Source: Acidobacteriota bacterium
GTDB taxonomy: Bacteria; Acidobacteriota; UBA6911; RPQK01; CBDAPI01
Length of the DNA: 64,000 nucleotides
NCBI GenBank assembly: GCA_965214465.1
Contig: CBDCBX010000021.1
Coordinates: 835,843-899,842 of the forward strand
Direction: 5' to 3'
Position numbers and translations under genes: made by a program. This document shows positions 17,426 to 51,338 of this stretch, piece by piece; within the stretch, counting starts at the first letter, position 1; the number at the start of each line of letters is the position of its first letter. Below the pieces are notes generated by a model. The model saw only the letters and a program-made list of their open reading frames with translations, ran no database searches and was not told where the DNA came from.

Positions 17426-18559
17426 ATGATGAGAATTTGTTCTTTTCTCCTATTTGTGCTTCTCCTCACTGCACCCGCCGTCCAGGCCCAGGAAGTCTCC
17501 TACCTGCCCCAGGTGGGAGATGGTCAGTTCGGCGATTTCATCCGGCTGATCACGGAATTTATCTTCGTGAACAGTGGAGCAAGCACGCAGGTCACCCTTG
17601 CGTTCAAGCTTCCCGACGGCGCTCCGATGACCCTCGATCTGGTGGGAATCGGTCCCACGACCGAGCATACATTCGCACTGGGAAGGGGGGAATCCGCCAA
17701 ATTTTCGACCATGGGAGAAGGCGCCCCCAATGTGGGATACGCGATCGTCACCGCTGGAGGCCCTCTCGCCGGAGGGAGCAGCGGTAGTGGCGTGGGAGGG
17801 ACCGGGGTCTTCATTCAGATAGACGTACCCTCCGGCACCATCCTGAGTGAGACCGGCGTGCCGCTTGTGAAAGGACTGTCCGCTTTCAGCCTTTTCGTGG
17901 ACACCACCGGAACTCGCGACACGGCGCTGGCTATCGTCAATCCCGCCGGGCCAGGTGTACTGGGCGGAGGTGGAGGACCGACAACGGCTGCGCGTCTGAG
18001 TTTGTTTGACAAGTCTTTCTCGCTTATCGCCACCACCGACAGGGAGCTTGCACCGGGCGAGCGAGTCAGCGAATTCATGAATGACATTTTCGGTCCTAAG
18101 GTGGCGGTTCCAGAGGAGGGAAGCTTGACGGTGACCTCAGTCACCCCGCAGGGAGGAGGGGGCAGCGCTACGCCGCTGGCCGCCCTCACGGTGAGAACCA
18201 ACAACCTGGCAGCTATTTTCCCGGAGGGCGTTCCCACCTTCACCGCCTTCCCTGTGGTCCCTGGAGCTGCCGCGCTTCTTTCTACGGGCGTGATGGGAAC
18301 CGTAACACAGGAATCCCCCGCGACCGTGAACGTCACGCTCGATCTGAGCCAGGCGGCACGCCCGGTTAAGGGCGCGATCTTCTACATTCTTGACCATGGT
18401 GAGCTGATCGGTGAGGAGGTTCGATCCGTGGACACGCTCGACTTCGCCAGCTTCGCCTTCGAACTCCCGGGACGTTCGGGATCCGCAGGTGTGGAAGACG
18501 TCGAGGTTCGCTTGATTTATGAAGGGGGAGAGATCACTCCTCGGATGCCGGTCCAGTAA
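17426..18559 (+). CDS. secreted Gly/Thr/Ser-rich protein with two beta-sandwich-like domains (paralogous N-domain shared with 39283..39663 and 43821..45866)
   Basis: It has a signal peptide MMRICSFLLFVLLLTAPAVQA. The domain signature YLPQVGDGQFG...FVNSG...LAFKLPDGAPM matches QYFSQVGLNGG...INNPS...LYLPDGTPL of the fibre protein. Confidence 0.65.
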   Translation: MMRICSFLLFVLLLTAPAVQAQEVSYLPQVGDGQFGDFIRLITEFIFVNSGASTQVTLAFKLPDGAPMTLDLVGIGPTTEHTFALGRGESAKFSTMGEGAPNVGYAIVTAGGPLAGGSSGSGVGGTGVFIQIDVPSGTILSETGVPLVKGLSAFSLFVDTTGTRDTALAIVNPAGPGVLGGGGGPTTAARLSLFDKSFSLIATTDRELAPGERVSEFMNDIFGPKVAVPEEGSLTVTSVTPQGGGGSATPLAALTVRTNNLAAIFPEGVPTFTAFPVVPGAAALLSTGVMGTVTQESPATVNVTLDLSQAARPVKGAIFYILDHGELIGEEVRSVDTLDFASFAFELPGRSGSAGVEDVEVRLIYEGGEITPRMPVQ

Positions 18560-30266: not shown

Positions 30267-30370
30267 CTGCTCTTTCCTCGTTGGACTCTTGTCTTGCAAG
30301 TCGATCGGGACCAACAACTCGCTCAATGGCGATAAGGATCCGTGCTGAAAATTCCTTCCTCCATGCCCAT

Positions 30371-31183
30371 TCATCGGCCCCTCCTATTAAATTCAAGTTC
30401 TGTATACTTAACGCGCTGGACACCTTCAAGATTTACTACGTCAGCATAAAACACCCTGACGCTAACATCTCTCCCGAGCTGCCGTGAAACGGTTCGGCCG
30501 GATTTTTGAAGATGATCAAGTTGAAGTTCACGTACTGATCTGTGAGAGAATCTGCGACTAACTGTCTGGACAATATTTGTCCTTCCGGCTCTGTAACCTC
30601 CACAATCCTCGTGTCCTATGCAGATAACCGTTTTAACTTCGGTGAGTTCAATTGCTTTTTTAAGCAACAGTTGCATACCCTTATGCAAAAAACCAGAGAC
30701 GGCGACGAGTGCTGTAAATACCGCCAGGCCACTTGGAATCTGAATGAAGTGTGGCTGACTAAAGCCAAGGGTCTGAACAAAATTTTCATTCTGCTTCTCA
30801 AACCGCGGATCTGAGCAGCAGATAACAACACAGTCTGCCGAAGTATTTTCCCAGTTAACAGAGCTTACAAAACCTTTTCTCCCAAGTTCTTCTTCTGAAA
30901 TTCTCCCAGTAAGTCGAACAGATTGCTCCTCCGACTCCTTTACTTCAGAAGAGTCATCTTCATCAGTCATTGGGGCTTCCATTTCTTCGAGTACTTCTTC
31001 TTCGAGTACTTCTTCTTCGAGACCTTGAACATCGACGAGAGCACCCTTTAGAGATGGGTCCCCGGGTTCTTCTGGGTGTGTATTGTCATCTAACCCCATC
31101 GTTATTTCTCCTTTTGCTGTTGTAATTGAAGGATCAGGAAGCGTCATCCATATCGCCCTGATGAGATGATTCTTCCGTATCAC
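30371..31183 (-). CDS. beta-carbonic-anhydrase-like Cys/His/Cys protein with acidic repeat-containing N-terminus (paralogue of 33624..34271)
   Basis: CSDPRF ... ICIGHEDCGGY resembles the beta-CA zinc-site motifs (CSDSR / HxxCGG). A 15-bp tandem DNA repeat encodes LEEEVLEEEVLEE. The gene sits in a low-GC island. Confidence 0.45.
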   Translation of the reverse strand: MIRKNHLIRAIWMTLPDPSITTAKGEITMGLDDNTHPEEPGDPSLKGALVDVQGLEEEVLEEEVLEEMEAPMTDEDDSSEVKESEEQSVRLTGRISEEELGRKGFVSSVNWENTSADCVVICCSDPRFEKQNENFVQTLGFSQPHFIQIPSGLAVFTALVAVSGFLHKGMQLLLKKAIELTEVKTVICIGHEDCGGYRAGRTNIVQTVSRRFSHRSVRELQLDHLQKSGRTVSRQLGRDVSVRVFYADVVNLEGVQRVKYTELEFNRRGR

Positions 31184-32924
31184 TCACCATAGACATAAGA
31201 CCTGTTGCATCCAGACCCAAAAAATTCAAGGCCTTGCTAGGGTCAAGTCCTAGCGGCTTCAACGAAGCCAGCAGTTGAACCAGGGCCTGGGGCGCCACTC
31301 CCGTGATTTTTGAAAGTGGGCTGTTGGCGTTTTCGCCACCATTACCCAGATCGAGGATCTGGATTCTGTCAACGGCTGCCAACCCTTGACCAATAGGCTC
31401 CATAGCAGAGCCAAGAGCACTCTCAGCGGCTTGGCCAGCCTTTTCGATGATCTGCGGCAGCAACTCGAGCGTCAGAACACGAAGAGCCTCCGCTGACATT
31501 TGCGCCATGGCCTCTTTCTTCCTGAGAAAGCCTTCTGCCTCAGCCAGAAGTTTGGCCTCAACGGCTCGGCCTTCGGCAAGTCCCTTTGCAGAAATAGCCG
31601 CACCATCGGCATCACCCTGAGCTTTTGTACCATCTGCTGCTGCCAGAAACTGAGCACGCTCACCGTTGGCTCTGGCTTCCATCTCAGCCTGGTCCGCCTC
31701 GGCGGCGGCCTTACGACCTTCCGCTTTTGCTGTCAAGAAAGCTTGCTCACCTTGCCCCTTCTTTTCCTGCTCCACACGAAATGCCTCACCGCGCATGACA
31801 GCTGCTTCCTGATCAGCAGAAGCCTTAATCAGTGTGGCATCCTTCTGGCGTTCAGCAGTGACAATGACGCTAGCTTTAAGCTCGGCATCTTTGCGTGCAT
31901 GCTCTTTCAGTTGAAGTTTCGTTCTTGCCTCAACCTCGGCCTCCTTAGCCGCGATTATGGCAATATTGAGCTTTCTTTCCTCTTCGGCCTTAGCGGTTTG
32001 AGCAGCAACCTCGATTCTGGCTTGCTCGGACTGAACCCTGGCTGCGTTCTGAGCGACGACCGTATCTCTCTGTCGATTGGCGTCAGAAATTGCTCTTTCG
32101 GCTTCCGCTTCTGCTGTCTCAGCTTGCTGTTTGGCCAGTGCCGCCGCGGTGCGGGCCTCACGATCAGCCAAAGCAGTTCGGACAGTAGCATCCCTGTCCG
32201 CTTCAGCCTCACCGATAGCCGCATCGCGCTTCACCTCAGCCGTGGCTTTTTTACCAAGAGCGTCAATGTAGCCGTGATTGTCGGCGATCTTCTGGATAAC
32301 GAAGATATCGACCTCAAGTCCTAGCTTGTTCAGCTCGTCCTTGGCAACATTGAGTACCGAACCGGCGATTTTTTCCCGCTCCTTGATGATCTCCTCGATC
32401 TTGAGCGTGCCCACAATCATTCTCAGCTGACCTTCAAGAGTTGATCTGCTAATCTGTATCAACCGGCTCAGATCGTTACCCACTTCAAGCAGCCTCTCGA
32501 CGGCATTTGCAAGCAGCCTGGGATCGGAACTGATTTTGAGATTAGCCAGCGCATCTACAGTCACAGGTACGCCATCGATGTTTGGCGAATCAGTGATCTG
32601 AAACTCAACCTGAAAGGTGTCCAGGCTAATCCGCTCGTATGATTCAAAGATAGGCCACACGAATGTCGCTCCTCCGGTAATAAGACGATAACCCTTCTCC
32701 GATTTAGTGCCGTCGGGAAGGGTTATCGTCTTCTTTTTACCGAAGACGACAAGGACTTCGTTTGGCGCGCACTTGACATAGTTGCGTGCAAAGGTAATCA
32801 AGACACTAAGCACCGTGACGGCAAGCCCGACAATCACTACCGGAATCAATAATCCTGCTAGATCCATTCTTTTCTCCTTTTTGAATTGGATTGGCTGTTT
32901 TAGTTTCGATGTAACCGTGGTCAC
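31134..32924 (-). CDS. flotillin-like SPFH-domain protein (YqiK/FloT type)
   Basis: It has an N-terminal TM helix, an SPFH/band-7 domain and a long Ala/Glu-rich coiled coil (EAEAERAISDANRQRD...). Confidence 0.9.
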   Translation of the reverse strand: MTTVTSKLKQPIQFKKEKRMDLAGLLIPVVIVGLAVTVLSVLITFARNYVKCAPNEVLVVFGKKKTITLPDGTKSEKGYRLITGGATFVWPIFESYERISLDTFQVEFQITDSPNIDGVPVTVDALANLKISSDPRLLANAVERLLEVGNDLSRLIQISRSTLEGQLRMIVGTLKIEEIIKEREKIAGSVLNVAKDELNKLGLEVDIFVIQKIADNHGYIDALGKKATAEVKRDAAIGEAEADRDATVRTALADREARTAAALAKQQAETAEAEAERAISDANRQRDTVVAQNAARVQSEQARIEVAAQTAKAEEERKLNIAIIAAKEAEVEARTKLQLKEHARKDAELKASVIVTAERQKDATLIKASADQEAAVMRGEAFRVEQEKKGQGEQAFLTAKAEGRKAAAEADQAEMEARANGERAQFLAAADGTKAQGDADGAAISAKGLAEGRAVEAKLLAEAEGFLRKKEAMAQMSAEALRVLTLELLPQIIEKAGQAAESALGSAMEPIGQGLAAVDRIQILDLGNGGENANSPLSKITGVAPQALVQLLASLKPLGLDPSKALNFLGLDATGLMSMVSDTEESSHQGDMDDAS

Positions 32925-32984
32925 TCCACTCGTGGGAGTCCGTGTTCCTAAACAGATTAAGATCTGAAAACTGTCAGACCTGGT

Positions 32985-33602
32985 TCACTTATCTACTTTC
33001 TCCACAGCAACTCTGTCACCGAGGTAATCAACTACTCGGACAGGAGTGCCCGACTTCAAAGAGATGTTGCCAATTGTAACCGCAGTTCTTGTAACAATAC
33101 GTCCAGCCACTGATAAATCAACTTCTCCTATTCCTTCCTCAGGAATAGATATCTTCACAGTTCCTCTGGCTCCATTGTAATCAGATACCTGAATCATGGA
33201 ACTAGCTTGTTGCTTTAGAAACACCTTGTACAACAACAAACAGACGACTGCAAACGGTGTCCCACCAGCTAATCCAGCAAGAGATGAGACGAATACTTTT
33301 TCTGTGAAGTACATTACAACGAATGCAAATCCGCCAAATCCAGTCAATAGAAACGAAATACCTCTTATGGACAGTAATCCGGGACCATGACCATCTCCGC
33401 CAGCGTCATGATCTCCATCAAAGTCACCATGATCGGCTCCAACATCTGCCTGTAAATCACCGTCGAAGTCGCCATGTTCTGCATCACCTCCAAATATCAG
33501 GCCGAAAAGTGTAAACACCATTCCTGCCGCAAAAAGCGAAAAGAAAATTAACGACTCCATCGAATTACCAAACATCGCTATGATCCATGCGCCAATATTC
33601 AT
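32985..33602 (-). CDS. NfeD-like (YqiJ-type) membrane protein, flotillin partner
   Basis: It has a TM N-terminus, a His/Asp-rich linker (GDAEHGDFDGDLQADVGADHGDFDGDHD) and a C-terminal OB-fold-like region. It lies directly upstream of flotillin. Confidence 0.75.
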   Translation of the reverse strand: MNIGAWIIAMFGNSMESLIFFSLFAAGMVFTLFGLIFGGDAEHGDFDGDLQADVGADHGDFDGDHDAGGDGHGPGLLSIRGISFLLTGFGGFAFVVMYFTEKVFVSSLAGLAGGTPFAVVCLLLYKVFLKQQASSMIQVSDYNGARGTVKISIPEEGIGEVDLSVAGRIVTRTAVTIGNISLKSGTPVRVVDYLGDRVAVEKVDK

Positions 33603-33623
33603 GATGTGTTTCTCCTTTTGGCT

Positions 33624-34271
33624 TTACCGACCAGGGTCTGTATCACTCCGTTCAGATAAACCGATTATTTCCTGAGGAAGCTTTCCCGATATACGATAGA
33701 AAGTAAGTTCTTCACCTTTCATCTCTGCATAGTAAAGATAAACTTCGCTATCAGGAAACCACTCTCTAATGACATTGCGAGCCATTACCAGGTGCTTATG
33801 TTGCACCATTTGTACCTCCTCAAGATTATCGCGCCAGGCGGAGATTGTGTCGTAAAGCAGACAATCACTATGGGCAACAAGAACAACCTTCTCAGGAGCG
33901 TGCCTTCTTAAATACTCAACAGCAGCATTTTTAGCCGGAATAAGATTATCTGGAAGCAATTCATCAGCAAGAGCCACGACCATAGGTCCACCGGGGACCT
34001 TGAGCGGCGGGTAACTGTCATCAATTTCAAGAGTTTTCTTGAAGGCTTCGAAGGCCTCCTGAAACTTCTCCTCGTCGCAGTGTAGAATTAGATCATATCT
34101 GTCTTGCTCCCTGAGTCTTACGACAAAATTGCCATGTTCGTCTGCACCAAGAACATCGGTGCGAATAGGCTCTCGAGCCTCCTCGAGTTCCCATGCCAAC
34201 CAGATCAGGCAACCAAATATTAGAATCGAAGCCACACAAATAACGACGTATCTCATATTCGGGCTGAACAT
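33624..34271 (-). CDS. membrane-anchored beta-carbonic-anhydrase-like Cys/His/Cys protein (divergent paralogue of 30371..31183)
   Basis: It has an N-terminal TM helix. HCDEEKF ... VVLVAHSDC aligns with CSDPRF ... ICIGHEDC of the paralogue. Confidence 0.4.
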   Translation of the reverse strand: MFSPNMRYVVICVASILIFGCLIWLAWELEEAREPIRTDVLGADEHGNFVVRLREQDRYDLILHCDEEKFQEAFEAFKKTLEIDDSYPPLKVPGGPMVVALADELLPDNLIPAKNAAVEYLRRHAPEKVVLVAHSDCLLYDTISAWRDNLEEVQMVQHKHLVMARNVIREWFPDSEVYLYYAEMKGEELTFYRISGKLPQEIIGLSERSDTDPGR

Positions 34272-34473
34272 CAGGTTGCTCCTCTTTTTTAAACTACGAC
34301 TTTAATCGTATCAATATTCCTTTTCTGGGAGATGTTGTGACGCTGGTCGAGTAGATCAGCCATTCCTTTCGCACCACTTGTTTTCATTGGTTTAGCACGG
34401 TGTGGCTTGATTCCGGTTGTGAACTTCTCGTCTTGTTCTTGCTGCGAGTCTTGCTGCCTGGGCCAAAGCTACA

Positions 34474-34623
34474 ATGGCCGGAGATCAACCGGGTAGAGTG
34501 GTCTGCTATTTTCCGCGCACAGACCCGATCAGGCTCGAGGACAAGGAAGTGGAGTTTCAGCTCGAGTGGGGCCGCGTGAAGATCAAGAGCAAATTCAAGC
34601 TCAAGAAAATGGTCTACGACTGA
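34474..34623 (+). CDS. small hypothetical protein (49 aa)
   Basis: The ORF MAGDQPGRVVCYFPRTDPIRLEDKEVEFQLEWGRVKIKSKFKLKKMVYD is below the ORF-track cutoff. It has protein-like composition and lies in the low-GC island. Confidence 0.2.
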   Translation: MAGDQPGRVVCYFPRTDPIRLEDKEVEFQLEWGRVKIKSKFKLKKMVYD

Positions 34624-34752
34624 AAGCTGGAGCTGTAGCCAGCAATGAGGCCAGGCTGGACCACCACACCAGCTCCTAAGTGTGAAGAAGAACTGTCCAG
34701 ACGAATGACTGTATGACGTCATCTACAGGCTTCTTCTATAACATTCTTGAGG

Positions 34753-34783
34753 TAACACAGAATATGCTGGTCAGCATCGTATC
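34753..34783. promoter_or_regulatory. 31-bp palindromic motif, copy 1 (copy 2 at 37229-37259)
   Basis: AACACAGAATATGCTGGTCAGCATCGTATCC is compared with AACACTGAATATGCTGGTCAGTATAGTATTC (27/31 identical). The core ATGCTG-GT-CAGCAT is an inverted repeat. Copy 2 sits 20 bp upstream of the start codon of the 36472..37209 gene. Confidence 0.5.
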
Positions 34784-34793
34784 CCGGCTGTTT

Positions 34794-36197
34794 TCAGCTT
34801 GACTTCGTTCCTTCGACAAGGATTGCCATCTCTACAACCGCCGCACCAATGGAATCACCAAAGACATTTGCTGCTGTTCGGAACCTGTCAAGCAGCCAGT
34901 CCACGGAAAGGATCAACCCCACATACTCTATCGGCAGTCCGACCGCGTTCAAGACGATCAACATCGTAACTAAACCGGCTTCTGGAATTCCCGCTGCACC
35001 AATAGCGGCCAAGGTCGCTGTAACAGCGATGATTACCTGTTGCGCGAGTGTGAGATGAAAACCGATTGCCTGGGCAATGAAGATCGCGGCGGCAGCTTCA
35101 TACAACGCCGTGCCGTCCATGTTAATCGTCGCACCCAATGGCAAAACAAAATCCGTTGATTTTTTCGACACCCCAGCTTTCTGTGCCGTCTCCATCGTCA
35201 CCGGCAACGTAGCGGACGAACTCGCCGTCGAGAACGCCGTCAAAAGAGCCTGGGACATTTGATACATGAACTTGTAGGGATTCTTCTTAGTGAACATCCA
35301 GTAGATGGCTGGGAGTGTCACGAGCACGTGGAACCCTAAGCCAGCAAGCACCGTTGCGAAATACCAACCGACTTGCGACAACTCTTGCACAAACCTGCCT
35401 TCGGCCCTTGCTTCACCAAAGCGTGCCGTCACCAAACAGAAAATACCAATGGGTGCCAACTTCATCAGGAGCATGATGAAGTTCATGAGGGCGGTATTGG
35501 CTTGTGTGACCAGATCGTTGATCAACCCCACCTTTTGGCCCAGTGTCGTGAGCATTCCCGCAAAGATGATGGAGAACACGATCAGCGGGAGCAGATTGGT
35601 CTCGGACGCACTGACGAAGAGATTGTCCGTCACCAGCATCAAGACAAGATTCTCCAGGATCTTCGCTACACTTGGCGTTTCCGGTTCACCGCTGGGAAGT
35701 TCCTTGAAAACACTGCCGACTTCATCCTCGGTCATGCCCGTCACGTCGGACAGCTTTTTCAGCATTCGCGACTTGGGAGAATTTGCACTGTTTCCTCCCT
35801 GAAACTTCTCAAGAGTAGCCTTATCTACCGTCCCTTCACCCGGTCTGATTACATTAACGACCACCAGGCCCACAACCACAGCGAGGATAGTTGTTGAGAC
35901 GTAGTATAAAATGGCAGCTGCACCGGGCTTCCCCAATTTGCGAACGTCTCCGAGGCCCAAGATGCCGCTCATCACGCTGGTCATCACCAGCGGAACCACC
36001 ATCATTTTGAGACACCGCAGGAAAACTTCACCACCGACACGGAATTTTGTCGCCAAGAGCGGGGCGACCAAAGCTAGTGCAATAGCCGCGGCAATTGCGA
36101 TGCAAATGTAGAGTGTGAGATGACTCTTCTTTTCGTTCATAGAATTTTCTCGGTGGAAAGCTCGCCATTCATCACGACAAACGCGGTTAGAACCCAA
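34794..36197 (-). CDS. dicarboxylate/amino-acid:cation symporter (DAACS / GltP-DctA family)
   Basis: It has 8 TM helices plus re-entrant loops and the family motifs (AAIGAAGIPEAGLVTM, NMDGTALY). The probable start is MNEKKSHL at ~36141. Confidence 0.85.
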   Translation of the reverse strand: MGSNRVCRDEWRAFHRENSMNEKKSHLTLYICIAIAAAIALALVAPLLATKFRVGGEVFLRCLKMMVVPLVMTSVMSGILGLGDVRKLGKPGAAAILYYVSTTILAVVVGLVVVNVIRPGEGTVDKATLEKFQGGNSANSPKSRMLKKLSDVTGMTEDEVGSVFKELPSGEPETPSVAKILENLVLMLVTDNLFVSASETNLLPLIVFSIIFAGMLTTLGQKVGLINDLVTQANTALMNFIMLLMKLAPIGIFCLVTARFGEARAEGRFVQELSQVGWYFATVLAGLGFHVLVTLPAIYWMFTKKNPYKFMYQMSQALLTAFSTASSSATLPVTMETAQKAGVSKKSTDFVLPLGATINMDGTALYEAAAAIFIAQAIGFHLTLAQQVIIAVTATLAAIGAAGIPEAGLVTMLIVLNAVGLPIEYVGLILSVDWLLDRFRTAANVFGDSIGAAVVEMAILVEGTKSS

Positions 36198-38016: not shown

Positions 38017-38449
38017 GCCGACGCCGCTTAAGACTGATCGTCTGTTTTCCAGATAGGTCCGTTACCTGTACCGCTTCAAACTTCCGAGCTTGCGTTTCAG
38101 CTTCCGATTCTCATCCACTTGCCTCAGTTGACGATCCAGAGGATTGACCGGCTTTGCCTTGCGTCCCCGCTTGCGAGGGGTCAAGGCCTGCATGGCGGCG
38201 CCAGGTCTGCAGATTTTGTTCCAGATGATACGCCCGGAAGATTATGGCGCCTACCCCAGTGTTCGCGAGTCTTGGAACGACCTTGGTGCCCTCACTTCGA
38301 TTTCCTCGTTGTATGACGCAAAGGCATGGTGCATGACACCGTGTATCTCTTCACCTTCCTGGTGACCCTGGACCTCCTGTGGTTTCCGTTTATTCGGTCC
38401 GCCTTGGAAACATTGAACTTGCGCCGATCCCAGGTCAACATGGGCCAGC

Positions 38450-38657: not shown

Positions 38658-39293
38658 CTATTGCTCGGCGCGCCGACGTTCGAGCTCCGTCAAATCTTCG
38701 AGAGCCCGCTGCGCCAACTCCGCGACATCCGGGTGGACGTCGTCGACCGCCAGTGTCAGGGCTTCGCGGGCTGCCTCTTCGTCGTCAATCCCGTCGGCCA
38801 TGGCACGCCAGATCGACTGGACGGCCTCGTACCGGTTACTCGCTTCCATGTCGAACACGGCAACCTTGGTCAATACCGCCACCGCGTCATCGTCTCGGTG
38901 CAGACCGACCGCATGGATCGCCTCGCCGCGGCGCTGCTCGTCCGGGTCCCAGAGCGCGGTCTCGGCCAATTCCGCGAACCGTTCATCGTTCGCCAACGCG
39001 GTGCGCTCCGGCGCCTCGGTCACGTGGTCGGCCTCCAGCGGATCCCCCTTAGCATCGTCGTCTTCGGGGGAATTCGTCGGCGCCCCGGTTGCGTCGACAG
39101 ACGACGGGGCGCCTTGGTCGCGCCTGGTCGGCTCAATCTTCGTGGCAGGCTCAACCTGCGTGGCAGACGGATTCGATCGCGCCTGCAGGGGCAACGACTC
39201 TCCCGGACTGTCCGCTGGCAGCGGCCGGCCCCGGGGTGACACCGAAACCGCCTTTGCCATCTCGGTTCCGGAAGCCGCGGGCTCAGCCTCCAC
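38658..39293 (-). CDS. hypothetical acidic protein with HEAT/PBS-lyase-like repeats
   Basis: The 211-aa ORF is in a very GC-rich segment. Its C-terminal repeats (AIHAVGLHRDDDAVAVLTKVA...) resemble HEAT-like repeats, and it contains an internal 18-bp direct repeat. This is a weak call. Confidence 0.3.
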   Translation of the reverse strand: MEAEPAASGTEMAKAVSVSPRGRPLPADSPGESLPLQARSNPSATQVEPATKIEPTRRDQGAPSSVDATGAPTNSPEDDDAKGDPLEADHVTEAPERTALANDERFAELAETALWDPDEQRRGEAIHAVGLHRDDDAVAVLTKVAVFDMEASNRYEAVQSIWRAMADGIDDEEAAREALTLAVDDVHPDVAELAQRALEDLTELERRRAEQ

Positions 39294-39663
39294 AAAGAGA
39301 CATGAGCGTGCCAGCTTTCGGGTCTCCGAAAGAGAGGGTCTCGGTGGCTCCCGGTCCTAACTCCACTTGCCCATCGGCCAGCGGCGTTCCATCGGGAAAA
39401 TACAGTTGGGCATCCACGGTAATTGTCTCCGTGGCGCTGGGATTGTTGATGGTAAATGACGTGGTGGACCCCCCGTTGACGCCCACCTGTGAAAAGTACT
39501 GGACATTGCTGCCGAACTGGCCCAGCAGGGAAGGAATACTCACCTCCCAAACCAAGACAATGGCCAGGATGTACGCAGCTCGAATCATGCTCTTTGCAAC
39601 GGTGGCGAGGGTGATGGTGGGAAAACAAGCTCTAAGGCTCATGGAGAATCCTCCTTTAGTCAA
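39283..39663 (-). pseudogene. truncated 5' copy (signal peptide + ~100 aa of N-domain) of the fibre-protein gene at 43821..45866, inverted
   Basis: MSLRACFPTITLATVAKSMIRAAYILAIVLVWEVSIPSLLGQFGSNVQYFSQVGVNGGSTTSFTINNPSATETITVDAQLYFPDGTPLADGQVELGPGATETLSFGDPKA is ~80% identical to residues 1-105 of the fibre protein. DNA identity is ~85-90% over ~340 bp. The ORF ends abruptly after ...GTLMSLCGG. Confidence 0.6.
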
Positions 39664-39973: not shown

Positions 39974-40466
39974 ATGACCAATTCAAGTTTACCCCTTAGC
40001 GGGAATCCACCCAACACTTACTCAATCAAGGAATTCCAGCTGCTGGTCCGGGACAAACCCGCGATCCCGGCAGAGATCCTGCCCTTTGTAGGTGCACCCT
40101 TTACTTGCAGTGTGGAGATTTTCAGACGGTTCCAGGGCCTGGCCACTATGCCAGTGGAGGCCTTCCTGGCCCTGCACCTCGACGGCAAAAACAGACTGGT
40201 AGGGCATGACCACCTGCAGCATAGGGTCCATGACGGCCAGCCTGGCCCACCCGCGGGACATATTCAGACCGGCCATTGCCAACCTGACAGCCGGTCTGAT
40301 CTTCGTGCACAAGCACCCCAGTGGTGACCCAGAGCCCAGCCAGTCAGACCTTGATATCACCTGCAGGCTGGGTGAGGTTGGTCGGGTGGTGGGAATCCGA
40401 GTGCTGGATCACGTGATCATAGGTCAGGACCGCTATTTCAGCTTTGCAGATGAGGGCGTGATCTAA
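39974..40466 (+). pseudogene. radC: RadC-like JAB/MPN-domain protein, interrupted by a 1-nt frameshift near 40207
   Basis: The first ORF encodes the RadC N-part (...LDGKNRLVGHD). The second ORF carries CSIGSMTASLAHPRDIFRPA...LIFVHKHPSGDPEPSQSDLDIT...VLDHVIIG, the HxHPSG JAMM motif. The two join as LVGHD|TTCSIG with a +1 frame shift. Confidence 0.75.
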
Positions 40467-43328: not shown

Positions 43329-43740
43329 TTGACTGAGAGACTCTGGGAAGGTCCGCTGATCCCGGAAATCCTGGATTCCGTCTCACGCAAAGCGGTGAAG
43401 AAAGTTCTGCCCAAAGCACGAGACGATCTCTACGGGCCGGTATCTGAGTGCTGTCAGTGGCCGGGACGCCAACGGGATCCCTTAAGCGCAATACGGGTTT
43501 CGCGTCAGCGAAGTGTATCGGGGCGCCCCGGCCGCCCCCCTAATGCTCCGTCGTTGGGGGTCTTGGGACGTCCACTTGCGCCATTTTGTTGCCTTGGTAA
43601 CGTAGAAGTGACATATTCGCCAATACGAAAGAGCGCCACTTCAGACGATGAGGTGAATCTGCGAGTTCGCGTCAGCGAGCTGGCCAACCTCCACAAGGAG
43701 GACATCCAATGGCAGGAACGAAGGTTGAGGGCTTGAGCGC
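43329..43740 (+). pseudogene. decayed paralogue of the secreted protein gene at 47499..48134 (in-frame stop, indels)
   Basis: DNA at 43420-43540 aligns with 47600-47720. The homologous frame reads ...STGRYLSAVSGRDANGIP*AQYGFRVSEVYRGAPA... versus FTGQCLSVVSGLDANGLPYTQYSFHVSEMFRGVPAEQ. The called ORF 43329..43736 is in a different, non-homologous frame. Confidence 0.4.
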
Positions 43741-43820
43741 TTCCCGCGTGAGGCGAAGTCGGCAGCTGCGATCGATCATCTGCAGATCAGCCACATCTAA
43801 ACAAGATTGGAGAGATTCAA

Positions 43821-45866
43821 ATGTCCACTACTGAACGTTCCTCAAAAGCATTTACAAAGAGCATGTTTCGAGCCGGGTACATCCTGGCCATCGTCCTGGT
43901 TTGGCAGGCGAGTCTCTCTCCTCTGATGAGCCAGTTTGGTAGTAATATCCAGTACTTTTCGCAAGTGGGCTTAAACGGGGGGTCCACCACGTCATTTACT
44001 ATCAACAATCCCAGCACCACGGAGACGATTACCGTGCAGGCACAACTGTATCTTCCCGATGGAACGCCACTGGCCGATGGGCAAGTGGAGTTAGGGCCGG
44101 GAGGCACCGAGACCCTCTCTTTCGGAGACCCGAAAGCGGCCCTGACCTCAGGATGGGCTGAGCTGAAGTCCGATGACGCGTTTATCTCCACGGAGTTTTT
44201 TCAGTTATCTATTGCGGGCGAGCTCAAACCTCGGATCGGGGTACTGCCCAGTGTGGCAAGCAATGAGATCCGCTTCCTGGGATTCGTCAACCCGCAGTTC
44301 AAGTCTGGTCTGGCGGTCAGCAACCCGAGTTCTACGGAGGCAACTGAAATCACCCTGCGGGTCAAGGACAAGACAGGTCAGGAGCCTGTCGGCGAGATGA
44401 AAGTTGTGCTGGCTCCGCTGGAATGCGTAGCGGGCTTTCTGAACGAAGAGAAGTTTTTTGGAGCGGCGCTTAGTAACTATGAGGGAGTGGTAGAAATCAC
44501 TACCAATTCACCCGGTGTGGCAGCGCTCGCCGTGCTACAGGCGCCGAACGGAGACGTAACCACTGTGTCCGTTCTCACCCAGGATCATATCATCACCACC
44601 GAGACCAACACCGCCCTTGGGATCGGGGCACTCGTCTCCAACACCACCGGCTTTGAGAACACCGCCACGGGAGCCTCTGCGCTCGGCGCCAACACCACCG
44701 GTGAACGGAACACGGCCAGTGGAGACGAGGCGCTCCTCTCTAACATCGAAGGCAGATCTAACACGGCCAGTGGGGCCAGCGCGCTCGGAGACAAGACCAC
44801 CGGCAGCTTTAACACTGCCAGTGGGTCCAGTGCGCTCAGAGAAAACACCACCGGCAGCTCTAACACAGCCAGTGGAGCCCTTGCGCTCTTCTCCAACACC
44901 GAAGGCAGATCTAACACGGCCATTGGGGCCAGTGCCATGGAATCCAATACCACCGGTGAACGGAACACTGCCACTGGGGACAATGCGCTCGCATTCAACA
45001 CCGACGGCATCTTCAACACGGCCAGTGGGTTCGAAGCGCTCACATCCAACACCACCGGCTTCAGGAACACCGCCACGGGAGTCTTTGCGCTCTCCTCCAA
45101 CACAGAAGGCATCTTTAACACGGCCATTGGGGCCAGTGCGCTCACATCCAACACCGAAGGCATCTCTAACACGGCCAGTGGGGACGGTGCGCTCTTCTCC
45201 AACACCACCGGCAGATCCAACACGGCTGGTGGGGTCGTTGCGCTCGCAGACAACAACACCGGCAGCTCTAACACGGCGGTGGGCACGAGCGCGCTTCGTG
45301 GCAACACCACCGGTTCCTCCAACATTGCCCTTGGGTTTTCGGCAGGACAGGACCTAAGAGCTGGAGACAATAACATTTATGTCGGCAACCCTGGCGTGGC
45401 GGCGGAATCGAACACCATCAGAATCGGTGACGGCAGTATCCACACCAGTGCCTTCATCGCCGGTATCCCGGTCGCCGGGGTCTCCTCGAAGCGGTTCAAG
45501 GAAGACATCCGCGACATGGGACAGGCCAGCACCAGCCTGATGCAGCTGCGACCGGTCACCTTTCGTTACAGGAAGGAGTACGACGCCGGTGATCATCGGC
45601 TCCAGTACGGGCTGATTGCAGAGGAAGTCGCCGAGGTATATCCCGAGCTGGTCGTCCACGACGACACGGGCAGGGCTCGGGCGGTGATTTATCAGGAGTT
45701 GAACGTGATGCTGCTCAACGAACTCCAGAAACAGCATCAGGTCATGCAAGAGCAACAGGAACAGATTGAGCAGCAGCAGATGGTGACTGACAACCTGATG
45801 GAGCGGCTATCCCAACTAGAGGGCATCTTGACCCTCCAGGAGTCGCTCACGTCATTGACCGAATAG
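43821..45866 (+). CDS. secreted fibre-like protein: signal peptide + beta-sandwich N-domains + ~16 fifteen-residue Asn/Thr/Gly/Ser repeats + C-terminal peptidase-S74 intramolecular chaperone (autoproteolytic) domain
   Basis: The signal is MFRAGYILAIVLVWQASLSPLMSQ. The repeat pattern is SNTxGxxNTAxGxxAL. The C-terminus ...AGVSSKRFKEDIRDMGQASTSLMQLRPVTFRYRKEYDAGDHRLQYGLIAEEVAEVYPELVVHDDTGRARAVIYQELNVMLLNELQK... matches the conserved S-(D/K)-x-R-x-K-x-x-I ... YG-x-IAQEV-x-x-V-x-PELV ... V-x-Y-x-x-L core of endosialidase/tail-fibre chaperone domains. Confidence 0.85.
   Translation: MSTTERSSKAFTKSMFRAGYILAIVLVWQASLSPLMSQFGSNIQYFSQVGLNGGSTTSFTINNPSTTETITVQAQLYLPDGTPLADGQVELGPGGTETLSFGDPKAALTSGWAELKSDDAFISTEFFQLSIAGELKPRIGVLPSVASNEIRFLGFVNPQFKSGLAVSNPSSTEATEITLRVKDKTGQEPVGEMKVVLAPLECVAGFLNEEKFFGAALSNYEGVVEITTNSPGVAALAVLQAPNGDVTTVSVLTQDHIITTETNTALGIGALVSNTTGFENTATGASALGANTTGERNTASGDEALLSNIEGRSNTASGASALGDKTTGSFNTASGSSALRENTTGSSNTASGALALFSNTEGRSNTAIGASAMESNTTGERNTATGDNALAFNTDGIFNTASGFEALTSNTTGFRNTATGVFALSSNTEGIFNTAIGASALTSNTEGISNTASGDGALFSNTTGRSNTAGGVVALADNNTGSSNTAVGTSALRGNTTGSSNIALGFSAGQDLRAGDNNIYVGNPGVAAESNTIRIGDGSIHTSAFIAGIPVAGVSSKRFKEDIRDMGQASTSLMQLRPVTFRYRKEYDAGDHRLQYGLIAEEVAEVYPELVVHDDTGRARAVIYQELNVMLLNELQKQHQVMQEQQEQIEQQQMVTDNLMERLSQLEGILTLQESLTSLTE
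44590..45330 (+). repeat. in-frame degenerate 45-bp tandem repeats (15-aa units) within the fibre gene
   Basis: The periodicity is visible in DNA (…aacaccaccggc…aacacggccagtgg…gcgctc…). It generates long spurious ORFs on both strands (44585..45376(-), 44617..45357(+)). Confidence 0.8.
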
Positions 45867-46103: not shown

Positions 46104-47462
46104 CTTCACAATTTAGGGGTGTACCGTTCTTTCTGTAATTTGAGGAAGGTGAGCTAAAAGGATCAGAGGTCTGGGGCAGGATTTCTCCAAAAACTCAAGA
46201 CAAGAGCAAGGAGGATCCGAATGACCCCAGACCCAGAACAGAGGCTACCACGAGAATTGTTGAAAGAACTGATCGAAGAAGGCAGCGACGCGTTTCGAGG
46301 AGTGTTGGAGAAACTGCTCAACACCGCCATGCAGATGGAACGCGAAGAGTTTCTGGGAGCTCGACGCTGGGAGCGGAGCGAGCAGCGTCGAGACCACGCC
46401 AACGGGTACAAGGCCAAGACGCTGTCAACTCGAGTGGGACAGCTTCAAATCCGGATTCCACAAGTACGTCACCTGGACTTCTATCCCCGATCCCTGGAGC
46501 GAGGGTGCCGCTCGGAGAAAGCCCTGAAGCTGGCCATCGCCGAGATGTACGTGATGGGCGTGTCGACGCGCAAGGTCACTGAGATTACCGAGCAGCTGTG
46601 CGGCACCGAGATCTCCGCCAGCCAGGTCTCAAGAATCTCCAAGCTGCTGGACGACGAACTCGAGCAGTTTCGCAACCGCCCTTTGGGCAGCTATCCAGTT
46701 GTGTACCTGGATGCCCACTACGAGAAGGTCCGTCGCCAGGGCAGCATTCAGGATGTGGCCGTCTTGAAAGCGACCGGAGTCAACTGCTGGGGCAAGCGGG
46801 AGGTGATTGGGGTCAGCTGCCGACTCAGCGAGGCGGAGGTCCACTGGCGAGAGTTTCTGCAGCAGCTTCAAAAGCGTGGTCTGGAGGGTGTGCAGCTGAT
46901 TGTCAGCGATGACCACTCAGGACTACGAGCTGCCAGAAGAGCTGTCTTTCCTTCAGTGCCCTGGCAACGCTGTCAGTTTCACCTGAGCCAGAATGCTCAG
47001 CGATACGCCCGCCGATCCGACCAACGTGCCGCCATCGCCACTGACATTCGAGACATCTTCAATGCCCCGTCTGGAGGCGAAGCTGAGGCGATGCTTCGGG
47101 CCAGAGTCGAGCAATACTACGACCGCAACCCGGAGCTGGCCGATTGGATGGAGACCAATCTGCCGGAAGGCTTTACGGTCTTTCGTTTTGCACGTTCTAC
47201 CTGGCGGCGCATTCGCACCAACAACGGGCTGGAGAACCTAAACCGTCAGATTCGCCGGCGTACCCGGGTCGTCGGTATCTTTCCAAACACCGAGTCCGCA
47301 CTACGACTCATCACCGCTGTCGTCGAGGAGATTCACGAAGACTGGCTGATCGGGAAACAGTACCTCAGCCTGGTCGATTTCAAACCACAGGAGAATCCGA
47401 TCTCAGATCACTCTCAGTCAAATTACAGAAAAACAGTTGCTTAGCCCACAATTTTGTGAAGG
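46104..47462 (+). mobile_element. IS256-family insertion sequence (~1.36 kb)
   Basis: The imperfect terminal inverted repeats are CTTCACAATTTAGGGG (left) and CCCACAATTTTGTGAAGG (right; reverse complement CCTTCACAAAATTGTGGG). The element contains a single mutator-type transposase gene. No clear 8-bp target duplication is seen. Confidence 0.7.
46221..47444 (+). CDS. IS256-family (mutator-type) transposase
   Basis: The 407-aa product has an IS256 transposase domain (…YLDAHYEKVRRQG…LIVSDDHSGL…CQFH… DDE with K/R spacing, with the typical C-terminal region). Confidence 0.9.
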   Translation: MTPDPEQRLPRELLKELIEEGSDAFRGVLEKLLNTAMQMEREEFLGARRWERSEQRRDHANGYKAKTLSTRVGQLQIRIPQVRHLDFYPRSLERGCRSEKALKLAIAEMYVMGVSTRKVTEITEQLCGTEISASQVSRISKLLDDELEQFRNRPLGSYPVVYLDAHYEKVRRQGSIQDVAVLKATGVNCWGKREVIGVSCRLSEAEVHWREFLQQLQKRGLEGVQLIVSDDHSGLRAARRAVFPSVPWQRCQFHLSQNAQRYARRSDQRAAIATDIRDIFNAPSGGEAEAMLRARVEQYYDRNPELADWMETNLPEGFTVFRFARSTWRRIRTNNGLENLNRQIRRRTRVVGIFPNTESALRLITAVVEEIHEDWLIGKQYLSLVDFKPQENPISDHSQSNYRKTVA

Positions 47463-47498: not shown

Positions 47499-48134
47499 AT
47501 GCGCATTCGTCGCTTCCTCGGCGTACTGGCTTTCCTGTTTCTCGTGGCACCCTCCCTCACCCGGGCGACCACTCTGGAAGTCGTCAATCTGGAGAACCTG
47601 GTCCTACACTCGGAAACGATCTTTACGGGCCAGTGCCTGAGTGTTGTCAGTGGTCTGGACGCCAACGGGCTCCCTTACACTCAATACTCGTTTCACGTCA
47701 GCGAAATGTTTCGCGGCGTCCCGGCCGAGCAGGTGACCGTAAAGCAGTTTGGGTATTCCTCCAGCCCGGTTCCGGGGGGCCGGGCCGGCGCTGTCACCCG
47801 CATTGCCGGAATGCCGGAGTACCTGCCCGAGCAGACCTATCTGGTCTTCCTGGGCCCCACAAGCTATCTCGGCTTCTCAGCCCCCATCGGCCTGTTTCAG
47901 GGGGCCTTCTGGATCAACGATGCGAAACAGGCGGTCAACGCTCTCGGCAACCGAAATCTGACCTTTGACCGGTCCCGAGGGGCTGAGCCCTCCTCAGTGT
48001 CGGCAGGTGATTCCGAGCTGGTGCGTGGACCGGTGAGCTACGGACGGTTGAGAACTTTGCTCCAGCAACTGCTGCGGGGCGAAAGGATTCCCCTGGCATC
48101 GATGGCTTCCCGTCTAAAGGGAGCCAGCCGCTGA
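47499..48134 (+). CDS. secreted hypothetical protein (211 aa); a decayed paralogue lies at 43329-43740
   Basis: It has a signal peptide MRIRRFLGVLAFLFLVAPSLTRA. No family was recognised. It lies directly upstream of the metalloprotease gene, as its pseudogene copy lies upstream of the fibre gene. Confidence 0.55.
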   Translation: MRIRRFLGVLAFLFLVAPSLTRATTLEVVNLENLVLHSETIFTGQCLSVVSGLDANGLPYTQYSFHVSEMFRGVPAEQVTVKQFGYSSSPVPGGRAGAVTRIAGMPEYLPEQTYLVFLGPTSYLGFSAPIGLFQGAFWINDAKQAVNALGNRNLTFDRSRGAEPSSVSAGDSELVRGPVSYGRLRTLLQQLLRGERIPLASMASRLKGASR

Positions 48135-48178: not shown

Positions 48179-51100
48179 GTGGCGATTGTGCTGGCGCATG
48201 GGTTACAAGCGGGGAACCCGCTGGAACTCTGGGGACATTCTCCAGGTATCCCCTACCAATGGATTGGAGATCCTCCTACAGTTCTCATCCATCCTGATGC
48301 AGGAGCTCTGGGAATCCTGGATTCCGGGACCGCTTTGTCCAACCTGCTGGCTGCTGCCGAGAACTGGGAGGCCGTCCCTTCTTCCTCTCTGAGGTTTCAG
48401 AACGGAGGCTTGATTGAATCGATTCGGGGTCCCGAAGGAGCCGGCGATTTCGCTGTGTCCAATATCTTCGACTTCTTTGGAGTCGACAACGGTGGCGTGA
48501 CACCCATCGTCTTTGACAACGAAGATGTGGACCGGAATGGAAACGGAGATATTTTTGACGCCCTGGGACTTTTCGGCGTGCGTGGCACCGCCGGTCCGGA
48601 GTTCGCCGACGGAACGCGAATTACGGAGGGCTACGTGCTTATCAACAGAGCGGCGGTCAGACCTGGCGACGACGACGGACTGTCCGTTCGGAGGACCCTC
48701 GTCCATGAGCTTGGGCACCTGATCAACCTGGGGCACTCAGTGGTCAACGGGCAGGCCTGGCACTTCGGGGGGGCTGACGCCGTGACGCCCGACGGCATTC
48801 CTTTCATCGTCGGTGCGAAACACGTGGAAATCATGTACCCCTTCACTGTTGCTGCGGGCCGAATCCAGCGAGCCCGCTTCGATTTGTGGGTCCTCATCAT
48901 TCTGGGACCCACTCAAATCCGTCTGGTACTCCTATACCAACACAACCGGTTCACTGCAGCATCTTTCCACAGATACCCAGGGAAGTAACTATGAAACGGT
49001 TCTGCAGGCGTACCGGGGGAGCTGTGAAGAAGCGATTCCTGAAACCTGTAGCCGAGGTTTTAGTGACGGGGCTGCCCGGCTGCCCCTTTCTGCCCAGCCC
49101 GGAGAGACACTTCTCTTCAGAGCCACCACCTGGTCCAGCTTCAACCTCACCGGCGGCGAACTCGTCTTCAACATGGAGACCCTCCGGCCGCCCTCGAACG
49201 ACGACTGTGAGGACGCGATATCGGTGGGGCGCTCGGACCTTCCCTTCATGGATATGGTGGATGCCCGAGGAGCCGGCAATGCACTCTCCGAGCCCGAAAC
49301 GACCTGCGGGTCAACCTCGACACCAGAACAGTCCCACAGTGTCTACTACAGCTTTAAGAACGATTCGACACTTTCCCTGGAAATAGGGCTTTCCACTGCG
49401 GGTAGCCAATACAACACCGTTGTGCAGGTTTACACCGGATCCTGCCTCCTGACGCTTCCCGAAGCCTGCAATTCTAACTTCAGGACTACCGAGGTGACCT
49501 TTTTTGCCCAGCCTGCAGCGACCTATCTGATCAAGGTGAGTTCCTTAGGGACAGCCAATGCCGGCCTCCTGAACTTTTCGGCCCGGGCGGTGGGCGCTGT
49601 CAGGGGCGAGGATGTGGAGCTGCTTGTGTCCAGCCGGCAGCAGAGCGTTCCGGCTCGAAGCAATCTCGATTACATGGTGACAGTCACCAACTTTGGCCTC
49701 GACTCGGCCAGCGGGGTCTCGATCGCCACGACTCTCCCGGAAACGACCCTGCTTTTAGCTGCGGGGGATGGCCCAGTGACGTGCAGCCAGACCACCCCGG
49801 CTTTCATCTGCGAGGTTGGGTCTCTAGACCCGGGTCAAGAGATCCTCTTCCCCGTGTCGGTCTCGCCTCAGGTAGCCGGTCAGACCTCCATTCACGGTGA
49901 GGCCCACTGGGATCAGCGGACCCTCGATCCTCCCAGCACCACCGTGGTCCGGCAAGTTAGTTCTTTCCTCACCATACCAACTTCATTTCCGGTCCAGCCA
50001 GGCCAGGGGATGGCGGCGGACCTTCAGGGAACAGGGTTCCCCTTCGTAGGAGCAGCCCTGGTCAACCTGACAGACCAAGAGGATCACGTGACCCTCGAGG
50101 GATTCGACTCACTGGGAGAGCTCACTTTCCTGGGTGAAGACGCGACGCCTCTGCCGCCAGGAGGTCAGACCACCTTCCTCGTAGAAAACCTGCCCGGGCT
50201 GCCCGACACAACGAGAACGCTACTGGCCCGCGGCGATCAGGGAGAACTGGCCAGCTTTTTCATGATCGGAAACAGTCCCCTCGACCGACTCGACGGCATC
50301 GGTCGTTCTCTTCCCGAAGCTCGGAGACTGTACCTGCCGCTGGCGCGAAGCGGAGCGCACGGCCAGGCCACTCATCTGGACTTCTTTAACCCCTACCCCG
50401 AGGAAAACAACTCCATCTTCAGGCTCTTTGACGGAAGTGGAACCCAGATCGCTGAGGCTCAGCACTCCTTTGCCGCCTGGGGATCGTTGAATATCTCACT
50501 CAAAGAGCTCTTCGATTCTCCCGGTCCGGTCGATGGTTACATCGAGGCAGATGCCCAGCAGATCCTGCGTGGTTTTCAAATCTTCTCCAATCAGGTAGCC
50601 CTTGCCACCGCCGTGGCCTCACCAGTCAACCCGGTCAGCCAACTCTGGTCACCCCACTACTTCCTGGATGACCGAATCGGGGGAGCGACTGAGCTGCGGC
50701 TCATCAACCTGGAATCACGTCGAGTACTCGTCTCTGCCCGGTTTTTCGACGAGCTCGGGAACCCATTGGATCCTATTTCATTCACTATGGAGCCCGGAGA
50801 AGTCTTCTCGGAGGACGTTGCCAGCTTCATGGGCCTCCAGCCGCCAGCTGGTGATCGCCTGACCGGACATCTGCGGCTGGACCTGTCTACTGTGGGTTTC
50901 ATTGGTGAGGGGAGTCCGCGGGTTCGGGTCATCGGCCACATCAATTTCTCGACCAACGACTTCTATTCGTCTCTGCCTCTGATTTCCTTGCCCCGCTCGA
51001 CCACGCGTTTCCTGCAGGTGGCCCAATCGAACACACGGCAACTCTTCACGGGATTGGCTATTCTCAGCGCATCTAACAAGAACCCGAATTCTCCCGACTC

Positions 51101-51338
51101 GCACACGGTGGTCACTCTTCGGGCTGTAGACAACTCCGGCCAGATCAACGCTGAAAGGACTCTCGAGCTGAGGCACGGCGAGAGATTTCTCGGGACGCTG
51201 AGTGAAGATCTCTATTTCGGTGCAGATTTTGAGCAAATAGGTGGACACCTCGAAATCGAGGCTGCCAGCCCGGTCTTCATTTTTGCCTTCCTGGGAGATT
51301 CCGACGCCACCTTTCTCTCCGCTATAGAAGGCCAGTGA
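48179..51338 (+). CDS. large secreted metzincin-type zinc metalloprotease with C-terminal beta-rich (PPC-like) domains; single frameshift near 48885-48900 splits it into ORFs 48179..48988 and 48813..51338
   Basis: HELGHLINLGH (HExxHxxGxxH) plus the Met-turn EIMYP are in the upstream ORF. The downstream ORF continues in the +1 frame with repeated NYETVLQAYRGSC / QYNTVVQVYTGSC pre-peptidase-C-terminal-like domains. Confidence 0.7.

Follow-up and report, generated by a model that had tools for sequence, protein, structure and literature searches.

A Fibre-Like Protein with a Sec-Type Leader and a Phage-Type S74 Chaperone, Probably Cellular, Encoded in an Acidobacteriota Genome

Introduction

The described proteins that come closest to the one treated here are the mosaic adhesive trimeric (MAT) fibres of Bdellovibrio bacteriovorus, a group of 21 chromosomal proteins (Caulton et al. 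2024, Nat Microbiol, PMC10769870). Each MAT protein consists of a signal peptide followed by a conserved beta-rich N-domain of ~130 aa and then by a trimeric fibre, and the proteins were located on the surface of the predator (PMC10769870). In 13 of the 21, a C-terminal S74 domain is present, for which self-cleavage has been shown biochemically (PMC10769870). The authors pointed out that other bacteria, predatory or not, may employ further domains (PMC10769870). Here we analyse a chromosomal gene at 43821..45866 (+) in a window of 64,000 nucleotides (the whole stretch of DNA under study, from contig CBDCBX010000021.1 of an Acidobacteriota soil bacterium). Its product is probably a spike or short fibre that belongs to the cell and not to a virus. 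It would be a homotrimeric beta-solenoid, exported through Sec and matured by an intramolecular chaperone of the S74 type at its C-terminus.

The S74 domains have a catalytic motif of the form SDxxxK (PMC10769870). Self-cleavage of the MAT fibre Bd3182 takes place at S782, and its structure stops at A781 (PMC10769870). For pb1 of phage T5, the C-terminal 133 residues are described as a trimeric chaperone that is cleaved off (PMC4690869). Besides the MAT paper, a literature search on non-phage bacterial S74 proteins brought up mostly work on phages and on MYRF. With the Bdellovibrio fibres, comparable proteins owned by the host have been described before, and the present find is real but fairly ordinary. 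The novelty implied by an earlier, sequence-only reading of the locus was too high: the MAT fibres share the layout, and the databases hold more than 7,800 homologues.

Overall Architecture

The ORF check of the window revealed that 43821..45866 (+) is an intact ATG open reading frame (ORF) of 681 aa. Its product, which is 100% identical to a database protein (P0003), is built of four parts: a leader of the Sec type comes first, then an N-domain of 225 aa with tandem beta-sandwiches, and a repeat array leads on to the Peptidase_S74 chaperone at the C-terminus. The sequence-only reading had also divided the protein into four, and this division is borne out by the ORF, the leader features, the N-domain profile, the repeats and the Pfam family PF13884. 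Peptidase_S74 was the only family returned by a Pfam scan of the whole protein at E<=1, and no NCBIfam model matches it.

The C-Terminal S74 Domain and Its Predicted Cleavage Site

The S74 intramolecular chaperone/autoprotease extends over aa 555-681 (14.9 kDa; 45483..45866, +, stop codon included). It had been recognised earlier from the sequence, and the Pfam profile search agreed: PF13884 (Peptidase_S74) matches aa 555-611 with E=1.3e-13 and 51.4 bits (cut-off 22), covering profile positions 1-57 of 58. The catalytic residues Ser555 (nt 45483-45485) and Lys560 (nt 45498-45500) lie in S555-S-K-R-F-K560, the S-x4-K spacing of the SDxxxK type of motif, and both are invariant in 106 of 106 homologous C-termini and in all 58 aligned sequences. 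Searching the PDB with the single sequence gave a marginal MYRF match only, and a profile search was needed. The profile of 58 homologues matched the distal subunit of the phage S16 long tail fibre (6f45, E=1.3e-7) and the MYRF ICA domain (7dc3, E=1.6e-6), and in both matches SsrrfKedi is aligned with SDRRIKKDI. Because of the PF13884 match, the PDB profile matches and the invariant dyad with its S-x4-K spacing, the assignment of the C-terminus to S74 can be regarded as solid.

An AlphaFold2 (AF2) monomer model of aa 255-681 was computed from the 58-sequence alignment. The S74 domain directly follows the repeat solenoid, and it carries a long C-terminal helix at aa 624-680 (57 residues) with a predicted local distance difference test score (pLDDT) of 74-92. 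The domain shares PF13884, the Ser-Lys dyad, the C-terminal position after a beta-helical region and the helical tail with endosialidase, T5 pb1 and the MYRF ICA domain (MEROPS S74). It differs from them in that sequence similarity is low beyond the ~60-residue core and in that cleavage is here a prediction.

In characterised S74 domains, the catalytic serine is the first residue of the freed fragment. By analogy with phage T5 and Bdellovibrio, the scissile bond is thus predicted to lie before Ser555, at V554|S555 (nt 45482/45483). A cut after the serine had been proposed earlier, which, given the position of the serine in the characterised domains, is probably the wrong side.

The Repeat Shaft

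The repeat shaft (aa 263-517; 44607..45371, +) is composed of 17-residue units with the consensus NTAxGxxALxxNTxGxx. Both repeat finding and Tandem Repeats Finder (TRF) gave a DNA period of 51 nt, equal to 17 aa. Fourteen near-perfect canonical units, in which N1, T2, A3, G5, A8 and G15 are invariant, make up aa 263-500. Beyond them, the repeat is degenerate for another one or two units before it gives way to a conserved end piece. This corrects the period of 15 residues (~16 repeats) given in the sequence-only reading. The triple-beta-helix shaft proposed with it was built on the wrong period; a 17-residue period is not the signature of such a helix, and the AF2 monomer is a single-chain solenoid. 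The conserved end of the shaft (aa 518-554; 45372..45482, +), with NIYVGNPG..ESNTIRIGDG..HTSAFIAGIPVAGV, is retained in the homologue alignment and would become the new C-terminus of the protein once it is processed.

In the AF2 monomer, the repeats fold into a regular beta-solenoid of a single chain, to which every unit contributes one coil and two strands (pLDDT about 76-86). The shaft fold matches adhesin passengers, tailspikes and the UspA1 head, with the highest sequence identity among these matches found for trimeric-autotransporter heads (UspA1 25%, CbpF 18%). The AF2 solenoid and the fold matches together argue for three parallel single-chain solenoids and not for an intertwined triple beta-helix. 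With about 16 coils at 4.8 Angstrom per coil, the length of the shaft is estimated at roughly 8 nm, which in the model would make it closer to a spike than to a long fibre. It might also be asked whether the beta-solenoid is itself a polysaccharide-degrading enzyme, a tailspike-like glycan depolymerase as in S74-bearing phage spikes such as endosialidase; we consider this highly improbable.

The number of repeats differs between strains. The alleles in two further strains, L030 and L031, encode 715 and 732 aa, are 90-95% identical to the present gene and are longer than 681 aa by two and three whole 17-residue units. The ratio of nonsynonymous to synonymous substitutions (dN/dS) between the strains is uninformative, as only 1-5 codons differ.

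The likeness to trimeric autotransporter adhesins (YadA-like/UspA1/CbpF; type Vc) ends with the shaft. The protein has no C-terminal YadA beta-barrel anchor and, in the scan at E<=1, no Pfam match to Hep_Hag, YadA or UspA1, and its trimerisation would rely on a cleavable S74 domain instead of a membrane anchor. A type Vc trimeric autotransporter was rejected as an identification for want of the anchor barrel.

The Leader and the Upstream DNA

The first 37 residues (43821..43931, +) were identified as a Sec-type signal-peptide-like N-terminus by a hydropathy scan and by conservation of this region in homologue alignments. The isoelectric point is 10.3, the n-region is basic (K9, K13, R17), and the hydrophobic core at aa 15-27 has 11-13 residues, with a Kyte-Doolittle maximum of 2.36 at aa 18-28 (11-residue window). 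A polar c-region ending in ...SPLMSQ follows, and the N-domain begins directly afterwards. The core is apparently too short for a transmembrane helix, and the pattern looks like a Sec signal peptide. This assignment is made from sequence features alone, and the basic n-region and short core agree with the signal peptide proposed earlier.

A Shine-Dalgarno sequence, GGAGAG (43809..43814, +), can be read 6 nt 5' of the ATG. Scans for promoters and terminators around the fibre gene gave nothing beyond shuffled expectation. About 90 nt of leader DNA at 43730-43820 (…GCTGCGATCGATCATCTGCAGATC…AACAAGATTGGAGAGAYTCAAATG) can be aligned with positions 9900-10000 of another locus, L032, upstream of the paralogue P0028. 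As this locus is genomically unrelated to that of the fibre gene, the shared upstream DNA suggests a common leader or promoter which was duplicated along with the gene.

The N-Domain and Its Relatives

The N-domain (aa 38-262; 43932..44606, +) consists of two tandem beta-sandwiches with a TM1070/sensory-rhodopsin-transducer-like fold resembling a carbohydrate-binding module (CBM). A word-indexed search retrieved only close, mainly truncated relatives, and an exhaustive profile search was needed to find the domain in 446 clusters at 50% identity, mostly in N-terminal position. Partner domains were scanned in 68 of the longer members. DUF5719 was matched in 14, Peptidase_S74 in 13, collagen repeats in seven and UspA1 adhesin repeats in six; the remaining partners were sulfatase-maturase, right-handed beta-helix/NosD, WD40, BACON, laminin-G, GDSL lipase and phage tail collar domains. 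The N-domain is weakly related to DUF5719, and the DUF5719 matches are probably the N-domain itself. Owing to this promiscuous company and the CBM-like fold, we propose that the N-domain is an anchoring or glycan-binding module.

Comparison of the N-domain with predicted viral structures revealed no convincing counterpart (TM-score <=0.30), and a pattern scan of 2.9 million viral contigs found no relative within the limits of such a scan.

Relatives of the N-domain are also found elsewhere in the window. The sequence-only reading had placed it in two other secreted proteins, and a broadened profile confirmed both. In the secreted protein of 377 aa at 17426..18559 (+), the family follows right after a classic signal peptide, ...APAVQA|QE (broadened profile, E=6e-16). 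The DUF11/CLIPPER protein of 841 aa at 48813..51338 (+; Pfam DUF11) has two to three N-domain-type beta-sandwiches in its C-terminal half (N-domain profile E=2.4e-6; broadened profile E=3e-15). A truncated paralogue of the fibre gene at 39283..39663 (-), also found in strains L030 and L031, retains the leader and the first ~70 aa of the N-domain with 84-88% identity. It forms one arm of a 286-nt inverted repeat of 88% identity, 39314-39599 (-) against 43852-44137 (+), the other arm being the 5' end of the fibre gene 4.25 kb away. The geometry of this repeat would permit an inversion that swaps N-termini. Programmed, shufflon-like inversion was rejected for now, as the arms are only 88% identical, no recombinase gene lies nearby and the orientation is alike in L030 and L031.

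The most interesting thread is that the N-domain might serve Acidobacteriota as a general module for surface display. We put forward, tentatively and as something we ourselves hold doubtful, that it is an undescribed, lineage-restricted module for anchoring or display at the cell surface of Acidobacteriota and neighbouring phyla, which would sit right behind the signal peptide and present interchangeable passengers. If so, the phage-type fibres matured by S74 would be one kind of cargo in a wider system for display on the envelope, alongside collagen-like rods, adhesin repeats, sulfatase-maturase domains and beta-helix enzymes. Phage cassettes of shaft and chaperone, once captured, would then find a new use in attachment between cells or to particles, or possibly as phage decoys, in abundant and poorly understood soil bacteria.

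Phage Relatives and Mosaicism of the Family

More than 7,886 database proteins match the fibre protein. Nearly all of them have PF13884, many are encoded on megabase contigs, and they are named 'tail fiber domain-containing protein' or, in entries from JGI, 'trimeric autotransporter adhesin'. The nearest genome representatives are metagenome-assembled genomes (MAGs) of Acidobacteriota, one of which has three copies. Next come Verrucomicrobiota and Bacteroidota, which share the shaft-plus-S74 part only. Several fibre paralogues occur per genome.

The search with tail-fibre profiles suggested earlier was informative. The repeats match PHROGs 23837 and 6002 (virion structural) and 4636 (tail spike) with E=1e-46 to 1e-53. 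With tblastn, 145 phage records were found at 33-47% identity, 32 of which cover at least 80% of aa 255-681; they include the Pelagibacter phage HTVC112P tail fibre, the Roseobacter phage CRP-1 tail protein, Bacillus phage SPO1 gp2.52 and cyanophages. The shaft and the chaperone are, by these matches, clearly phage-like. These phage fibres and spikes (HTVC112P, CRP-1, SPO1 gp2.52; PHROGs 23837/6002/4636) have the same NTAxG-type repeat shaft and C-terminal chaperone, whereas they lack the Sec leader and the N-domain and are encoded among virion genes instead of in a housekeeping context. As the shaft and chaperone are phage-like and the N-domain is without a viral relative, the sequence indicates that the protein is a chimera, in which a bacterial leader and N-domain are joined to a phage-type shaft-plus-chaperone cassette.

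Two exchangeable versions of the chaperone are found in the family, SS[KR]RFK..YGLIAEEV, to which that in the window belongs, and SDKTKKENF..HYGPMAQDF. The paralogues P0028, P0030, P0034, P0035 and P0039 (same genomes; L032) have the alternative S74 (SDKTKKENFQPVDGEEVL...HYGPMAQDFFAAFG) behind the same N-domain and repeats, and in P0035 a collagen-like GPPGPQG stretch separates two repeat arrays. These arrangements are evidence of cassette shuffling within the family, and the two chaperone versions show the mosaicism expected of fibre genes.

Genomic Context

About 45 ORFs spread over the 64 kb were scanned against Pfam and PHROG. Apart from an IS256-family transposase and a RadC fragment, only cellular functions were found. 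Metabolism is represented by phosphoglucose isomerase and phosphoglycerate mutase, envelope and transport by an LptD-like protein, symporters and a MacB/FtsX exporter, and hydrolases and oxidoreductases by sulfatases, prolyl oligopeptidase, dienelactone hydrolase and cytochrome P460; a Ser/Thr kinase and a radical-SAM enzyme are also present. In the same scans, no capsid, terminase, portal, tail or integrase family was found in the window, which reaches 43.8 kb upstream and 18 kb downstream of the gene, and no sheath, tube or baseplate gene either. The neighbours of the fibre gene are a DLH hydrolase, the IS256-family transposase, the RadC fragment and pseudogene fragments. The sequence-only reading had named IS elements, a hydrolase and pseudogenes as neighbours in a non-prophage context, and this description stands.

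The assemblies of strains L030 and L031 are collinear with 33.7-56 kb of the window at about 99% identity. Three further loci of the family were inspected (five assembly places; the gene occurs in two assemblies at two loci). Around them are found recA, rpmB, sulfatases, Skp/OmpH, a sensor kinase and insertion sequence (IS) elements, with no phage genes within 10 kb on either side and no conserved neighbour.

The IS256-family insertion at 46115..47446 (+; 1.33 kb) starts about 250 bp downstream of the fibre gene. It has an 8-bp target duplication, CACAATTT, imperfect terminal inverted repeats and a Transposase_mut ORF at 46221..47444 (E=1.5e-109). As this copy is not present in L030 and L031, which are ~99% identical elsewhere, the comparison marks it as a recent strain-specific transposition. 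Another copy of the same transposase family lies near the paralogue in L032.

These observations bear on the idea of an orphan or remnant viral fibre, which either was the tail fibre of a prophage now decayed or is supplied in trans to a tailocin, an extracellular contractile injection system (eCIS) or a gene-transfer agent encoded elsewhere. The homology of shaft and chaperone to phage tail fibres and spikes is what such an origin would leave, the IS elements, the RadC fragment and the pseudogene fragments lie close by, and eCIS fibres can also end in S74 (PMC12923769). Nevertheless, a Sec-type leader is incompatible with particles assembled in the cytoplasm, and the N-domain is not an adaptor of virions or baseplates: proteins with sulfatase-maturase, beta-helix, WD40, lipase and collagen parts begin with it, and it has no viral relative in the structure and contig scans. 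Moreover, no phage gene occurs in the 64 kb, the IS is a recent strain-specific insertion, and the further family loci lie in unrelated housekeeping contexts. A viral remnant is thereby largely refuted, and we regard it as very unlikely.

Two narrower identifications were rejected. A prophage tail fibre gene does not agree with the absence of a virion, terminase or integrase block from the 64 kb, with the retention of the locus in three strains or with the housekeeping contexts of the other loci. An eCIS or tailocin fibre does not agree with the absence of contractile-system genes from the window, with the fusion of the N-domain to non-fibre partners elsewhere or with a leader that implies export. 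The central proposal of the sequence-only reading, a host-owned, exported fibre-like protein with a phage-type S74 domain and not a prophage tail fibre, finds support in the context, the synteny, the leader and the sharing of the N-domain.

Proposed Maturation and Location

The leader (aa 1-~37) would direct export to the periplasm via Sec. Three chains would be aligned with each other by S74 at the C-terminus (aa 555-681), from which folding of the shaft of 17-residue repeats would start, as is established for S74 domains in endosialidase, T5 pb1 and Bd3182. The Ser555/Lys560 dyad would then cut V554|S555, which frees the 14.9-kDa chaperone and leaves a stable mature trimer of 3 x 52.0 kDa. 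We infer these three steps, Sec export, S74-nucleated trimerisation and autoproteolysis, by analogy. At the N-terminal end of the mature protein there would be three modules of tandem beta-sandwiches, followed by the shaft with its 16 or so coils. The N-domain, in this view a lineage-specific module, most likely serves to anchor the protein at the cell envelope or to target it there or to a glycan, and the shaft would project outward as an adhesive or spacer element, its length varying by whole repeats between strains. An adhesion function, in an adhesin or S-layer role, may be envisaged for it. The fusion of the bacterial module with the phage cassette has expanded to a multi-copy family in this Acidobacteriota lineage.

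Several points weigh against a cellular, exported and S74-matured spike. The cleavage site of the leader is not a canonical AXA site, and a membrane-anchored form is possible. The S74 core has a pLDDT of only 35-48 in the AF2 monomer, trimer formation being beyond a monomer model; such low values are expected because the domain folds only as an interlocked trimer. No route of translocation across the outer membrane is evident, nor is there a conserved neighbour gene at the loci examined. No specialised distal tip domain separates the shaft from the chaperone, unlike in many receptor-binding fibres. Many members of the family, P0126, P0140, P0150, P0005, P0011 and P0015 among them, are truncated or frameshifted in or just before the repeats, which could reflect frequent decay, phase-variation-like slippage or indel errors of long-read metagenome assemblies. 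Finally, all of the results are computational.

Some of these points would suit a periplasmic or envelope-internal structural, matrix or sheath protein, which is Sec-exported, trimerised and processed and yet never displayed as a binding fibre. No outer-membrane translocation device or sorting signal was found, a specialised tip domain is missing, the estimated shaft is short (about 8 nm), and a gene for the OmpH/Skp periplasmic chaperone adjoins one paralogue. On the other hand, it is surface adhesins, tailspikes and the MAT fibres shown on the cell surface that the protein resembles most in fold and sequence, the N-domain resembles carbohydrate-binding modules, and variation in repeat copy number is typical of surface-exposed proteins. 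We therefore consider an envelope-internal role unlikely and a surface spike or short fibre the probable form of the protein.

Comparison with MAT Fibres

The protein and the MAT fibres (e.g. Bd3182) share a chromosomal, non-phage gene, a signal peptide (here judged from sequence features), a conserved beta-rich N-domain right behind it, a beta-helical fibre that is trimeric (here by prediction) and a C-terminal S74 with S-x4-K; in both cases, the family has multiple paralogues with mosaic parts. MAT fibres are ~1,000 aa long compared with 681 aa here, the present shaft is a uniform 17-residue repeat without a separate tip, and the host belongs to an Acidobacteriota lineage without known predation. 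The MAT N-domain (~130 aa) reportedly has no PDB fold match, whereas the N-domain here is larger and has a clear one. The protein works like a MAT fibre, yet it is not assignable as a MAT member because of its larger N-domain with a PDB fold match and its different, uniform shaft repeat.

The locus shows cleanly how a phage fibre-plus-chaperone cassette can be joined to a bacterial secreted-protein module, and it carries the MAT-fibre principle further than the predator Bdellovibrio. Attention is also drawn to the N-terminal domain, a high-confidence but uncharacterised one, which is shared by many secreted proteins and is a candidate for a role in anchoring or glycan binding. The practical gain is modest: annotation as 'cellular S74-matured fibre' instead of 'tail fiber', and a caution for predictors of prophages and receptor-binding proteins (RBPs) that treat PF13884 as a phage marker. 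The protein is a tractable target for biochemistry.

Other Features of the Window

An 83%-identical direct repeat connects 43420-43534 with 47613-47727, and the copy upstream corresponds to the 5' part of a secreted 211-aa ORF at 47499..48134, of which it is a fragment with stop codons. Judged by this repeat, a decayed paralogue fragment of the 211-aa protein adjoins the fibre gene upstream. An integrase fragment in the ORF at 43329..43736 was considered and rejected, as it has no Pfam support and the region is the stop-containing fragment of the paralogue of this downstream secreted protein.

Between the truncated paralogue and a DUF6454 protein, a frameshifted pseudogene encodes a RadC-like JAB domain (E=1e-29), the two parts of which lie in different frames at 40206-40466 and 39974-40327. 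The GC content of 30000-36000 is low, 47-51% compared with ~58% elsewhere. This stretch, which may have been acquired as an island, encodes an SPFH/Band_7 protein (31134..32924, -), a weak carbonic-anhydrase-like ORF and two ORFs without a family match (32985..33602, -, and 33624..34271, -). A 143-bp segment at 38073-38215, which occurs once in the window and is missing from L030 and L031 at the collinear junction, may be a small indel or an element resembling a miniature inverted-repeat transposable element (MITE).

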